Shown: one piece after another, positions 231 to 3,772 of the stretch | Layout: every line of letters starts with the position of its first letter | Numbering within the stretch: position 1 is the first letter of the stretch | Origin: Candidatus Latescibacterota bacterium | Lineage (GTDB): Bacteria > Latescibacterota > UBA2968 > UBA8231 | NCBI GenBank assembly: GCA_965217585.1 | Contig: OZ244561.1 | Span: forward strand, 4,832,001-4,896,000 | Direction: 5' to 3' | DNA: 64,000 bases | Program-made: the position numbers and the translations under genes | The notes under the pieces: model-generated | Seen by the model: the letters and a program-made list of their open reading frames with translations, nothing else | What the model was told of the DNA's origin: nothing | Databases searched by the model: none

Positions 231-767
231 GTGTTCCTAGCCCGTAAAATCTCGCTCGCGAAGTGGTCGAAAAAAGGCGAGTTGGCGGAGGGCGAGATTC
301 CGGCAGATGCCGTGACCGCGGACCTGCGAACGCAAGACAACAAGCTTTTATTCTGGAGATGCGGCGACGGGGAGGGAATAGAAGTCAACGAGGCCGTACT
401 GGCACTAGCCGCCGCGGGAACTAGCGTCGATAAAATTGATGTTGTTTGGTTGGCTGCCGATGAACTACGCTCCGACGGTCAAACTTTGCAAGATACCAAG
501 GGACGAACCCCTGTCCTTGAGTTGGCCGAATTACACGTTGATGTGTGCCGATTGGATTACATGCGCCTCGGAAAGGTCGCTCAACACATTTTTACCGCAA
601 TCCAAAAGGATCAGTACCTTCGGCTTGGGAAAGCGCGTGTCAAGCAACTCTTGGCGGAGGCGGTCAAACAAGAGCGTATTAACCCTAACGATCTCCAGAA
701 GCGCGTTCGTGAGGAGCCAGGGCAATCGCATCAAAAGTGCCCAGCGGACAATACTTTAGCCAAATAG
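231..767 (+). CDS. Hypothetical protein, possible ADP-ribosyltransferase-like fold; C-terminus altered by ISAs1 insertion
   Basis: GTG start directly after upstream stop; N-terminal ARKI, LRTQDNKLLFW and late LHVDV pattern; native end REELGL* can be rebuilt across the IS. Confidence 0.6.
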   Translation: MFLARKISLAKWSKKGELAEGEIPADAVTADLRTQDNKLLFWRCGDGEGIEVNEAVLALAAAGTSVDKIDVVWLAADELRSDGQTLQDTKGRTPVLELAELHVDVCRLDYMRLGKVAQHIFTAIQKDQYLRLGKARVKQLLAEAVKQERINPNDLQKRVREEPGQSHQKCPADNTLAK

Positions 768-1978
768 GTGTTATCCCATCCGGCCTTGAGCCGTTTGGTC
801 TGGACGCCGACCTTGGCCGTCTTCTCTTGCTGGAGCAGACTCACGGCAATCTGTCGCAGGAGGGCCATATTTTCCGGGGCATGGCCGGTGCGTACCCGTG
901 AGTCATCTTCACGGAAGACCACATCCAGTATCCAGTGCAAGGAATTTTCAATGCTCCAATGACTACGCACCGCTTCACCAAACCGCTGGGCATCGTTGTC
1001 CAGGCTGGAGATATAGTAGCGTCGTTCCACGGAGACTTGATCGCCTACCTGTCGCTGGGCTTCAACCATACCGAACAAGCCTAAGCCCTTCCAAGCGGTC
1101 CCATCGGCAAAAGCGTCGACCTGATCGGTGGTCCAGTACCGGCGGGTCTCAATGCGGCCGTGGTTTTCATCGTAGGTCTCAAACATGTCGACCGATAGAT
1201 CCTGATGCAGTTGAGGCTCCCCTCGGTCGAAGACCTGACGCAGATGATGCAACAGCTTGGGCTGATTAGCCTTGACGGCCAGTACGTAGTCGCCTTGCCG
1301 GTCGATGACCTGTTCGGCCACGCTTTTGTGGCAGCCGATGGCATCGACGGTGACGATGCAGCCTTTGAGCGCCAGCACACGCAGCAGTTCGGGAATGAGG
1401 GTGATCTCGTCCAGACCGCCTTCACAGTGGAACTGGCCTAACACCAGTCGGTTTTTCACCGCCCAGGCATTGACCATATGTACGGCTGCTTTACCCGAGG
1501 TTCGGTCATAAGAGTGGCGCAACGTTTTGCCATCAATAGGCACAATCTCTTCCTCAAGCTTGGGGAGGAGGGATTGGACCCAAGCACTGAAACAGTCCTG
1601 GAAATGCTCGGGCGAGATCCGGGCGAAGACGCGGCCGAAGGTGTCATGGGAAGGAATGCCATTGGGCAACGCCAGAAAGGTTTTTAGCCAGTCGTATTTG
1701 GATCGCCCAAACTCAGCGATATGCACCCAGTTGTCGGCCCCGCAGATCGCGCCACACACGGCAATGACCACAATATCGATGAGACGATGCCTTTGGCTGC
1801 GCTCGATACGGGGATCGGGTACCTGGGAAAAATGTTCAATCAGTGAATCAGCCGAAGGTGCCATGGGGAAACGTTCCAAGAGAAGGGGAGAGAAGCAGCG
1901 CACCAGCGCTATCGAAAAAGACACAGAAAATATAACATAACCCTATGACAAATCTCAATTTTTGGTGCGATTGCCCTG
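718..1978 (-). mobile_element. ISAs1-family insertion sequence (1261 bp)
   Basis: Terminal IRs CAGGGCAATCGCATCAAAA (718-736) and reverse complement of 1960-1978, CAGGGCAATCGCACCAAAA (18/19 match); 10-bp TSD CGTGAGGAGC at 708-717 and 1979-1988. Confidence 0.97.
731..1864 (-). CDS. ISAs1-family (H-repeat) DDE transposase
   Basis: DPR..HRL.DI, GIPSHDTF.RVF, IDGKTLR, VTVDAIGC, R.HW.IEN.LHW.LDV.F.ED motifs; likely start MAPSADS at 1864. Confidence 0.96.
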   Translation of the reverse strand: MAPSADSLIEHFSQVPDPRIERSQRHRLIDIVVIAVCGAICGADNWVHIAEFGRSKYDWLKTFLALPNGIPSHDTFGRVFARISPEHFQDCFSAWVQSLLPKLEEEIVPIDGKTLRHSYDRTSGKAAVHMVNAWAVKNRLVLGQFHCEGGLDEITLIPELLRVLALKGCIVTVDAIGCHKSVAEQVIDRQGDYVLAVKANQPKLLHHLRQVFDRGEPQLHQDLSVDMFETYDENHGRIETRRYWTTDQVDAFADGTAWKGLGLFGMVEAQRQVGDQVSVERRYYISSLDNDAQRFGEAVRSHWSIENSLHWILDVVFREDDSRVRTGHAPENMALLRQIAVSLLQQEKTAKVGVQTKRLKAGWDNTYLAKVLSAGHF

Positions 1979-2064
1979 CGTGAGGAGCTTGGTCTGTGAG
2001 ACGGAGAAGCCAAGTCAAGATAGAGGAAATAGCGGTAGTGGTTCAGTTTGAAATCTTATAGTCT

Positions 2065-2092
2065 TTGACGCAACGCACACAAAGTATAAAAT
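2065..2092 (+). promoter_or_regulatory. Sigma70-like promoter inside the left end of the cargo element
   Basis: TTGACG (2065-2070), 16-nt spacer, TAAAAT (2087-2092). Confidence 0.55.
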
Positions 2093-2113
2093 TAAACGCA
2101 GTAGCACTTCATA

Positions 2114-2185
2114 GCCCCGCTGGCTTCCTCACGGAGAAAGCGGGGCGTCCCCTCTGCCCTTTAGCGTTAGCCGACGCTAAAGGGC
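2114..2185 (+). other. Two GC-rich stem-loops in the leader of the cargo genes
   Basis: GCCCCGCT...AGCGGGGC (2114-2146) and perfect 12-bp stem GCCCTTTAGCGT-tagccg-ACGCTAAAGGGC (2156-2185). Confidence 0.7.
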
Positions 2186-2208
2186 GTAACCACGGGAGAC
2201 CAATTCCT

Positions 2209-2565
2209 ATGGCTACTTCCAATATTACCATTTCTCCCCAGCTTCAACAAACTCCTCGCCCTGACATTGGCGATCTTGTCGTTTGCCGAATAATTTCGCC
2301 CAAGGAGCACAGTTATTGGGTTGTTAAAGAGGTGTCGATGGTTGACAGTGTCGGTACGATCACGCATGTGTGCGCGGTTGGTTCTCCCCATGTGCAAAGC
2401 AAGATGTCCGAATTCGCCGAATATAAAACACCTCTCGATCAAGCGCTTATGAAGGGATTTGTCCACGCCCATCATGTTCAGCGCGACCACGCTGGAAGGA
2501 TTGATAAGGTGTTACCTGCCAACTGTGACATAAACCAATTCTTCGATATTTTCGAGTGTCGATAG
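2209..2565 (+). CDS. Orphan hypothetical protein (cargo gene 1, 118 aa)
   Basis: ATG at 2209 with GGGAG RBS upstream; no recognisable family. Confidence 0.55.
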   Translation: MATSNITISPQLQQTPRPDIGDLVVCRIISPKEHSYWVVKEVSMVDSVGTITHVCAVGSPHVQSKMSEFAEYKTPLDQALMKGFVHAHHVQRDHAGRIDKVLPANCDINQFFDIFECR

Positions 2566-2672
2566 CCCGACAATGACTCCAGATGACTTCGACGAATACA
2601 CTGATAGAGAAATCATCATAACGGTCAATAGCCTGTTGCAGGCGAATCGCCTCTTTACAGAAAGGAAGCACA

Positions 2673-3197
2673 ATGATAATCATCCTTATTGCACTTATGC
2701 TATTGCTATGTGTTCCGATGGAAAGTTGGACCAAGCACAAACCAATGGATAAACACCTAATTATTTATATTTTTCAGCAAATGTTTAAAGAAGTTGGCGG
2801 ACCCGAAACAGTACATATCGTACTTAGCGCGATTCAAGAATCAAAAACAGACGACGATCTTGAAATAGTGCTAAAGGCCGCCAAAATAGACCCCAAAAAA
2901 GCAATGAGAGCATTTACAGGGTCATCCATTGTCCTTCAAATGGTCAATGGTGGAATACCAACAGACCAAGCAATAGCAATCACAAAACAAACTCTACCAG
3001 AGGAATTAGAAAAAGATTATTCTGCTGCTTCTGTCCTTGTACTAGCCTTTAAAAACAAAGGGGAACCCATAGACTCAACTAAGGTAGCCAAGACATTGCG
3101 ACAGGCCGAACTATTACTACATACAGGACTCGATTCTAAAGTATCATTTAAAGAAAATGGCCTCGACTTAAATGTATTATTACATAAAGAGGACTAG
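2673..3197 (+). CDS. Orphan protein with N-terminal hydrophobic segment (cargo gene 2)
   Basis: AAGGAAG RBS; MIIILIALMLLLC signal/TM-like start; AT-rich codons. Confidence 0.65.
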   Translation: MIIILIALMLLLCVPMESWTKHKPMDKHLIIYIFQQMFKEVGGPETVHIVLSAIQESKTDDDLEIVLKAAKIDPKKAMRAFTGSSIVLQMVNGGIPTDQAIAITKQTLPEELEKDYSAASVLVLAFKNKGEPIDSTKVAKTLRQAELLLHTGLDSKVSFKENGLDLNVLLHKED

Positions 3198-3249
3198 AAC
3201 TAATATCCAATGGAAATATTTTTCAAACTGAACCACTACCAAATAGCCA

Positions 3250-3522
3250 ATGGAGATTCATACTTACCGGAGCGTCTGGGATGCCATTGCGGATAGCCCC
3301 GAAGAAGCGGCCAATCTCAAGTTCCGCTCTCAGCTAATGGATGCCATAAAGGCATACATTGATCACGAAAATATCACTCAGAAAGAGGCCGCCAAACGGC
3401 TTGGTGTGCCGCAATCGCGTGTGAGTGAACTCGTCAATGGCCGAATCAGCAAATTCACCATCGACAAGCTAGTGAACATGGCCGCACGGGTTGGGCTGAC
3501 TACTCGGATTACTGTCAGATAG
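3250..3522 (+). CDS. XRE/HTH_37 HigA-like antitoxin or regulator
   Basis: SVWDAIAD.PEEAANLK.R...ITQKEAAKRLGVPQSRVSEL.NG.I.KF.IDKL signature. Confidence 0.9.
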   Translation: MEIHTYRSVWDAIADSPEEAANLKFRSQLMDAIKAYIDHENITQKEAAKRLGVPQSRVSELVNGRISKFTIDKLVNMAARVGLTTRITVR

Positions 3523-3534
3523 GAGATCAACCCC

Positions 3535-3756
3535 ATGTACCAGATAACCGCTCGCGTACCCGATGACCTAGCCAAAGCACTAGACGAGGCCGCTGCGGAG
3601 CTCAAACGGAGCCGCGCCGCCATCATTCGCCAAGCATTGGAGCGATACCTAGAGGATCTCGACGACCTCAGCGTAGCTTTGGAGCGGCTGCGCGATCCTG
3701 CCGACCCGGTGCTGGATTGGGATCAGGTCCGGCATGAACTACTCAATTCGGATTAA
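3535..3756 (+). CDS. Ribbon-helix-helix (CopG/RelB-like) antitoxin
   Basis: QITARVPDDLAKALDEAA...RSRAAIIRQALERYLEDLDD pattern; AGGAG RBS. Confidence 0.88.
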   Translation: MYQITARVPDDLAKALDEAAAELKRSRAAIIRQALERYLEDLDDLSVALERLRDPADPVLDWDQVRHELLNSD

Positions 3757-3772
3757 GCGCCACGCCGCCACA
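3734..3772 (+). pseudogene. N-terminal remnant of a RelE/ParE-family toxin
   Basis: MNYSIRIKRHAA overlaps the antitoxin 3' end as in relBE operons, then runs into the RBS of the next gene. Confidence 0.65.

Follow-up and report, generated by a model that had tools for sequence, protein, structure and literature searches.

A probable mobile insertion cassette with IS1-type ends and a predicted structured leader in a Latescibacteria-related genome

The 64,000-nucleotide stretch examined here (the window) belongs to a single-contig genome of 7.32 Mb with a marker completeness of 94.6% (G000), and contains at positions 2034–3240 a segment of 1207 bp bounded by insertion sequence (IS)-type inverted repeats. 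Very probably, this segment is a mobile insertion cassette (MIC) that derives from a divergent, single-open reading frame (ORF) IS1-family insertion sequence of a Latescibacteria-related genus and is itself non-autonomous. Three hallmarks of a MIC were seen: IS-type terminal repeats, no internal transposase, and a target duplication together with empty sites. The element also carries a candidate promoter, a leader predicted to fold into three hairpins, and two genes, ORF1 and ORF3. Below, G numbers denote related genomes, L numbers extracted loci, X numbers metagenome runs and P numbers proteins.

Ends, target duplication and filled and empty alleles

The left terminal inverted repeat (GGTAGTGGTTCAGTTTGAAA; 2034–2053, plus strand) and the right one (3221–3240, minus strand) are 20 nt long, 100% complementary and 1167 nt apart. 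They are flanked at 2027–2033 and 3241–3247 by AAATAGC, a 7-bp target-site duplication that can be read directly. A first-pass annotation made from the sequence alone had reported these repeats and the duplication, and both are there. Searched with up to three mismatches, the 20-nt repeat gave just two matches in the 64-kb window and none in 100 shuffles. IS1-family ends begin GGnnnTG (the ISfinder rule), and both ends of the element start GGTAGTG, in agreement with it. Pfam and NCBIfam detected no transposase in the three ORFs of the element, as the annotation had stated, and its AT-richer interior was confirmed (43.2% GC versus 59.5% for the genome; leader 52%, ORF1 48%, ORF3 38%). The spacer occupied by the cassette has a 178-aa gene on one side and an XRE-type helix-turn-helix (HTH) gene on the other. 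The cassette is single-copy in G000 by blastn and had no match in the plasmid collection searched.

Comparison of this site among relatives revealed both filled and empty alleles. The window right flank is present in 14 of 31 genus genomes. The uninterrupted allele predicted by the annotation, AGAGG-AAATAGC-CAATGGAG, was found exactly in G012 and G022, where the 7-mer occurs once, in GATAGAGG AAATAGC CAATGGAG. In G028 and G013 the empty site differs by one base (AGATAGC), and in G002 and G029 the upstream sequence at the site differs. Furthermore, a contig of metagenome run X7 joins position 2026 to position 3241, omitting 1214 letters, with 7 letters ambiguous. The duplication and the empty sites identify the segment as a real transposed unit. 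That the repeats are a chance or structural feature of a segment that never transposed is an idea with one point in its favor, the single copy in G000. It is refuted by the shuffles, by exact empty sites with a single AAATAGC, and by at least nine further elements that have these ends and duplications of 8 bp, and we assign it a negligible probability.

Among 61 related genomes, the whole element was found in G011 only, at 98% identity over its positions 1–1207 and with the same site and flanks as in G000. The two copies differ by 17 substitutions and 4 indel columns. By region, substitutions number 0 of 55 positions in the left flank, 8 of 155 in the leader, 1 of 357 in ORF1 (Ala to Thr), 5 of 524 in ORF3 (4 of them synonymous; 1 bp is also lost at 3081) and 21 of 200 in the right flank. 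In G011 the right repeat is damaged by a 1-bp insertion and the right duplication reads AAATGGC. Identities of the flanks to G000 are mosaic (left gene, G011 96% and G012 93%; right flank, G012 97% and G011 92%). Because the insertion is common to G011 and has gathered substitutions, a mutated duplication and a damaged repeat, it is not fresh, and the recent mobilization proposed at first is not sustained. The insertion is shared and somewhat aged, and ORF3 is decaying in G011.

Parts of the element also occur in at least 20 metagenome runs from 10 studies, among the runs listed, and the best-matching run may come from the source sample. Of 24 runs, none was an RNA run with the element. A contig of 3281 letters from run X9 matches the element from 2035 onward only; its first 2448 letters have no counterpart in the window and thus probably mark a second insertion site. 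This copy carries 11 extra letters behind 2053 and lacks 1 bp at 2631, a deletion by which a 59-aa ORF is fused to ORF3, as in P0007.

Elements with the same ends in related genomes

The ends define a family. Of 61 genomes from the taxonomic family, 16 contain the pattern GGTAGTG-N6-TTTGAAA, and G000 has it at 10 sites; the same pattern written backwards, used as a control, was found nowhere. When one substitution is tolerated, the sites in G000 number 19 versus 2 for the control. Paired in inverted orientation, the pattern bounds autonomous elements, transposase-less cassettes and short pairs, so that the search for further repeat pairs suggested by the annotation uncovered a family with varied cargo.

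An autonomous IS1-type element with the same ends, also sought at the annotation's suggestion, is L032 of G024 (2895 bp; duplication AAAAATCG). Its repeats are identical to those of the window element, with the same 20-mer at both ends, and it encodes a 284-aa transposase and 2 passenger ORFs. Two further autonomous elements reside in G062: L033 (2678 bp; duplication GCATTTCC) and L034 (3372 bp; duplication AGCAGCTT), whose passengers include a proteasome-subunit-like ORF. The transposases of these partners, whose repeats are identical or nearly so to those of the window, pass Pfam PF03400 (DDE_Tnp_IS1) with scores of 46.3, 31.2 and 36.6 bits, above the cut-off of 24.1, and their best NCBIfam match is the IS1 family model NF033558 (E = 4.9e-22). 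The earlier assignment of the ends to the IS1 family is upheld by these matches. Classical IS1 has insA and insB' frames joined by a -1 frameshift, and single-ORF IS1 subgroups exist. Partner transposases are one uninterrupted ORF of 277–320 aa without an insA/insB frameshift arrangement. In L032, L033 and L034 the right repeat includes the transposase stop codon, in part the reason why TTTGAAA is conserved. The window element and L032–L034 have only their repeats (20–22 nt) in common.

Cassettes without a transposase are also present in several relatives. They are L035 of G011 (1654 bp; a 394-aa ORF with an HExxH motif recognized by eye; duplication GTGCATTG / GTGCGTTG), L036 of G071 (1435 bp; a 358-aa ORF; duplication CGCCGCCG), L039 of G012 (3730 bp; a 1056-aa ORF; duplication GAATTATG) and L070 of G021 (2880 bp; an ORF3 homologue; duplication GATTTTTC). 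Short repeat pairs span 78–642 bp, and one of them, L037, is without a duplication. G000 itself holds a 1030-bp transposase-less element at C1:1158501-1159530, with duplication CCTCTTTG and an extra internal left end, and a 78-bp mini pair of the repeat family, without transposase, at C1:2134471-2134548.

One relative lies at the same locus. In G022 the cassette site is empty, and an element of 5.07 kb is inserted 45 bp upstream of it, where the 178-aa gene has its stop codon (repeats GGTAGTGGGCTATTTGGAAA and GGTAGTGGGCTAGTCGGAAA; duplication GGCTGTGA). This element encodes a 277-aa IS1-type transposase that shares 55% identity with that of L032, and directly after its stop codon stands a homologue of the window promoter and leader. 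The ORF behind this leader encodes a different, 87-aa protein whose start, MVASTSNSNDPPKLQQ, resembles that of ORF1, MATSNITISPQLQQ. Elsewhere in the element are an ORF3 homologue on the opposite strand (39% identity over 162 aa, E = 2e-37) and an ORF1-family gene adjoining an internal repeat copy; the two are not adjacent. Judged by sequence, the promoter, leader, ORF1 and ORF3 of the cassette are homologous to parts of the G022 element and were not randomly acquired. The cassette would probably descend from an element like that of G022 that lost its transposase gene and was rearranged.

Its movement would depend on a cognate transposase, the 277–320-aa IS1-family DDE enzyme that recognizes these 20-bp ends in related genomes, acting in trans: binding of both repeats and insertion with staggered cuts of 7–8 bp would be the sole route. 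Relatives of the cognate transposase were found in 14 of 30 other genus genomes. In the whole of G000, none was found by PF03400 search or by tblastn with the three cognate transposases (E <= 1e-3). The cassette is thus stranded in G000, and of the earlier proposal that an IS1-family transposase moves it in trans, the part concerning matching enzymes in related genomes stands, whereas no such enzyme resides in the window's own genome. Absence of a transposase from the cell bears on present mobility, not on the identity of the element. Trans-mobilization is directly testable, since both filled and empty alleles are available together with autonomous partners. IS1595-family transposases of G000 were considered as partners and rejected, GGTAGTG-type ends being found at 0 of 5 loci. 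A second, more distant family of IS1-type transposases (372–393 aa; 35–38% identical over residues 13–154) has about 4–15 copies per genome in G010, G002, G022 and G029 and none in G000; a 372-aa relative scores 28.9 bits against PF03400.

Promoter and predicted leader

Promoter, leader and ORFs are on the plus strand. A sigma-70-like candidate promoter, TTGACG-16-TAAAAT, occupies 2065–2092 and matches 10 of 12 consensus positions, the best in the region; the promoter named in the first-pass annotation is therefore present as sequence. The G022 homologue keeps the -35 TTGAC, and comparable boxes precede the leader copies of L009, L083 and L085. Transcription from this internal promoter would yield an ORF1–ORF3 transcript. 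The leader downstream has a predicted folding energy of -54.1 kcal/mol (z = -4.66 versus shuffles) and forms three hairpins, one more than the two described before. Hairpin 1 (2114–2146) recurs with different stem letters in G022, G013 and G064, and 5 of its 12 pairs change on both sides. Hairpin 2 (2155–2186) has a conserved inner stem, GCGT/ACGC, and 7 of 14 pairs that change on both sides. Hairpin 3 (2190–2212) pairs the Shine-Dalgarno sequence GGGAGA (2194–2199) and the ORF1 AUG (2209), with both-sided changes in 6 of 8 pairs. Because this last hairpin hides the ribosome-binding site and start codon, the 5' leader is predicted to control translation of ORF1.

A covariance model of the leader (R1), built from G000, G011 and G022, detected at E <= 0.1 a total of 7 copies across 6 of the 31 genus genomes. 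With stricter filters and E <= 0.01, it matched 4 of 151 phylum genomes and added G064, a member of another genus, for a total of 8 copies in 7 genomes. A strict sequence pattern searched in 76 genomes recovered G000, G011 and G022 only, and Rfam 15 had no leader match at E <= 1 (window 1900–3400, both strands). In an alignment of 7 leader sequences, 92.6% of cells are paired versus 81.8% in shuffles, and 18 of 34 pairs change on both sides, as counted on this model-fitted alignment, versus 6.8 +/- 2.0 in shuffles (0 of 500 reach this value) and 1–6 in slid controls. Independent single-sequence folds of the G000 and G022 leaders gave the same three hairpins. Between G000 and G011, 6 of the 8 leader substitutions are unpaired and the other 2 turn C-G into U-G.

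Leader copies stand in several kinds of position. The leader lies behind a left repeat in G000, G011, G028 (L083; decayed, retaining hairpin 1 alone) and G064 (L085; 3 mismatches in the repeat), and behind a transposase gene in G022 and at a second site in G000 (C1:3250657-3250778; L009 2142–2263). The second G000 copy is at most about 115 nt away from the stop codon of an IS1595-family transposase gene, with promoter-like boxes starting 75 nt past the stop, and precedes a Cys-rich 98-aa ORF beginning MTSSTSKYNQSLQKEQ. For the IS1595-type element beside it (L009), no convincing repeats and no second copy were found. The G013 copy is near an IS1595-type fragment, and no mobile gene was seen within 1.5 kb of the G014 copy. 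The leader with the first ~15 codons would be a portable expression module, recombined before different passenger ORFs in IS1- and IS1595-type elements. More tentatively, promoter, three-hairpin leader and the first ~15 codons may constitute a new class of portable cis-regulatory RNA of the IS1- and IS1595-type elements of this lineage. Such a platform would be inserted by recombination, within the leader or first codons, before varied passenger ORFs, with translation gated by the hairpin covering the ribosome-binding site and perhaps opened by temperature, a ligand or an S1-like ORF1. If so, these elements would be a cassette system carried by transposons, with variable cargo but a constant expression module and constant ends.

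The hairpins could instead be DNA palindromes (protein-binding sites, transcription stops or recombination sites) or inert. Hairpins 1 and 2 are indeed long, GC-rich, perfect palindromes, and those of G022 and G000:C1:3250657 lie directly downstream of a transposase gene, a terminator-like position. However, neither is followed by a T run and a terminator scan does not list them, and a promoter-like site precedes each of the five leader copies read by eye. Moreover, hairpin 3 always covers the Shine-Dalgarno sequence and AUG, and the both-sided changes in its pairs make sense in RNA only. We consider this explanation unlikely and favor a regulatory RNA.

Probable passenger genes, surroundings and comparison with known systems

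The ORFs of 118 aa and 174 aa described in the annotation, the second with an N-terminal signal, were borne out. ORF1 (2209–2565; 118 aa) consists of a 17-residue N-terminal piece common to other leader-driven ORFs and a small beta-rich core of a rare family. Members of the family elsewhere begin directly at the core, with M-x-x-[VI]-G-D. Because its relatives start at the core and its N-terminus resembles that of the G022 leader-driven ORF, window ORF1 is by sequence a fusion of a leader-linked piece to the family core. A word-index search found 5 relatives, and a profile search gave 8 matches among 1.84 billion cluster representatives, one of which (6954 aa, 24 positions matched) is probably spurious. 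Among 76 family genomes, clear members are confined to G000, G011 and G022 (2 copies), with weak ones in G020, G069 and G079; two metagenome scans returned no relatives and a genome scan returned the G011 copy only. The AlphaFold model of ORF1 (pLDDT 62.5) has four strands and a helix. Foldseek against the PDB, a check put forward in the annotation, assigned no fold: the best match was a WGR domain (E = 0.14), with nothing at E <= 0.001. A protein atlas places ORF1 nearest to S1-domain and exosome RNA-binding proteins (score 0.90; 182 shared features). This S1 lead had no support from Pfam (0 for 9 family members), a PDB profile search (0 at E <= 10) or Foldseek. ORF1 is possibly a small cytoplasmic beta-rich protein of S1/OB type, the lead being weak.

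The second ORF1-family gene of G022 (L067 2506–3098; G022:C1:2936805-2937397) overlaps an upstream 83-aa ORF by 4 nt, and that ORF has a weak Cas2-like match below cut-off (E = 0.0063). The gene faces a small membrane protein also present in the G022 element. Neighbors in L067 are an HNH gene, the gene of a 372-aa IS1-type transposase and an ORF resembling, by eye, an IS256/mutator-type transposase.

ORF3 (2673–3197; 174 aa) starts 7 nt after AAGGAAG and carries an N-terminal signal peptide, so that an exported protein is predicted; the gene is frameshifted in G011 at 3081. A profile search found 7 proteins of 174–220 aa. Of 168 phylum genomes, 6 contain the family, and all 6 are of this genus. 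All members have a hydrophobic N-terminal signal sequence, and most are about 35 residues longer C-terminally than window ORF3. Members L072–L076 stand away from any repeat. The AlphaFold model of ORF3 has a pLDDT of 50.5, the protein atlas gave no usable match and the best Pfam E values were 0.14–0.24; PDB profile matches (a designed repeat protein and COMM domains) were taken as chance. A third, 59-aa ORF (2573–2752) has no Shine-Dalgarno sequence and a stop codon at 2639 in G011; it is probably not a gene and is for these reasons not counted as one.

No function could be matched to ORF1 or ORF3 in Pfam, NCBIfam, PADLOC or PHROGs. Both are real families, unlike transposases, that recur in related elements, a status consistent with cargo or with element-related genes. 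The earlier label of orphan genes needs correction: homologues of both, and of the leader, travel in the autonomous G022 element. ORF1 and ORF3 may instead be accessory genes of the element itself, such as transposition regulators or an addiction function, and not cargo that serves the host. Both families recur within repeat-bounded elements at 36–43% protein identity (the G022 element, and L070 for ORF3). Furthermore, ORF1 is nearly unchanged between G000 and G011 when set against the leader, and the atlas draws it towards RNA-binding proteins. Yet most elements of the family lack both genes, ORF3 relatives also occur away from repeats, ORF3 has a signal peptide and is broken in G011, and the S1 lead is not corroborated by sequence or structure searches. 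We regard accessory status as doubtful. Less probable still, and unsupported, is the undescribed defense or toxin-antitoxin module suggested by the annotation. The compact two-gene arrangement on a mobile element, the variable locus beside XRE and RHH genes, and the 4-nt overlap of the second G022 ORF1 homologue with the ORF weakly resembling Cas2 (E = 0.006) are compatible with it. However, PADLOC (ORF1, ORF2 and ORF3) and the three other libraries were blank, and predicted export of ORF3 is unlike the usual toxin or antitoxin. In addition, G011 has a broken ORF3 beside an intact ORF1 with no sign of cost, and the two homologues are not adjacent in G022.

Several observations weigh against reading the segment as a mobile, self-expressing cassette of the IS1 family. 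The partner transposases score 78.9, 67.1 and 63.0 bits with NF033558, under its curated cut-off of 100, and are on that account distant IS1 relatives. The IS1 family makes target duplications of 8–9 bp; that of the window is 7 bp versus 8 bp in nine relatives. Without a cognate transposase in the genome, trans-mobilization cannot be current in G000. The flank that suggests a second insertion site in X9 is deduced from alignment limits. As for the leader, its covariation was counted on an alignment that leans towards structure. It was not found in the autonomous L032–L034, in 4 other cassettes or at the other transposase loci tested, and thus marks only a subgroup of elements. Promoter activity, the ORF1–ORF3 transcript and a regulatory role of the leader are predicted from sequence. 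Lastly, the frameshift in G011 indicates that ORF3 is dispensable.

The spacer that received the cassette appears to be an insertion hot spot, with three independent insertions within ~60 bp (window 1978–2034; G022:C1:2652975-2658085): an ISAs1-family element in G000, the cassette in G000 and G011, and the 5-kb IS1-type element in G022. The site may offer a natural landing pad for studies of target choice. The ISAs1-family insertion sequence (window 731–1978) encodes a 397-aa transposase (PF13808 and PF01609), ends ...CCCTG at 1978, and has five other copies at least 99.8% identical over the 478–482 nt of end compared. Its insertion removed the last codons of the 178-aa gene (231–767; phrog_10743, E = 3.5e-29), which in G011 and G012 continues to ...RVREELGL and a stop codon. 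On the other side, the cassette separates the Shine-Dalgarno sequence (GAGGA) from the ATG of the XRE/HTH_37 gene (3250–3522), leaving this gene without a ribosome-binding site in G000 and G011; it remains intact in both despite the insertion. The 178-aa and XRE/HTH_37 genes may have formed a two-gene unit. Further downstream, a gene of the RHH (CopG) type (3535–3756) is variable (region 3518–3772), with contigs of three runs having 28–29 other letters instead, and matches of a 520-nt right-flank query in G011, G013, G028 and G022 end at about its position 278.

Among known systems, the nearest counterparts are MICs such as MIC231 of the Bacillus cereus group, which has ends of IS231 (IS4 family). 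As in such cassettes, IS-type repeats flank passenger genes without a transposase. Passages of PMC3129680 describe MICs and their activation in trans by a cognate transposase, list MIC231 as reference B5, and mention transporter ISs with a citation of Siguier et al. 2009. Relative to MIC231, the window element has IS1-family ends and not IS4 ends, an uncultured Latescibacteria-related host, no cognate transposase in the genome and a three-hairpin leader. With the IS1 family and the transporter ISs of the IS1/IS1595 superfamily it shares, through its relatives, a PF03400 DDE transposase, GGnnnTG ends, 8-bp duplications and passenger genes, and the autonomous relatives fit the definition of a transporter IS as given in those passages, as the window element fits that of a MIC. 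They depart from IS1 in a transposase below the NCBIfam cut-off, the lack of an insA/insB frameshift and, in L032–L034, a stop codon within the right repeat; the window element departs further in having no transposase and a 7-bp duplication. Integron gene cassettes are likewise small mobile units with varied, promoter-dependent cargo at a variable locus. Here, in contrast, no attC-type site or integrase was seen in the scanned ORFs, movement is by DDE transposition with target duplication, and the element has its own candidate promoter.

Leaders that sequester a Shine-Dalgarno sequence are known from IS genes, namely the IS200 tnpA leader and IS10 RNA-IN. The window leader shares with them a 5' hairpin in which the ribosome-binding site and the start codon of a mobile-element gene are base-paired. 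It differs in preceding passenger ORFs and not a transposase, in two more conserved hairpins, in its exchange between IS1-type and IS1595-type contexts, and in having no Rfam family. In the library of papers searched, neither an IS1-family MIC nor this leader was found described in print. MICs are seldom annotated and are known from few IS families, and the present case adds a family of IS1-type cassettes and passenger-carrying elements from an uncultured candidate phylum. What sets it apart from described MICs are the IS1-type ends, the host lineage and the portable leader. The less expected of its features is that a conserved structured leader travels with the elements and precedes different small ORFs; if this leader regulates translation, transposable elements would supply acquired genes with a ready-made, controlled expression module.

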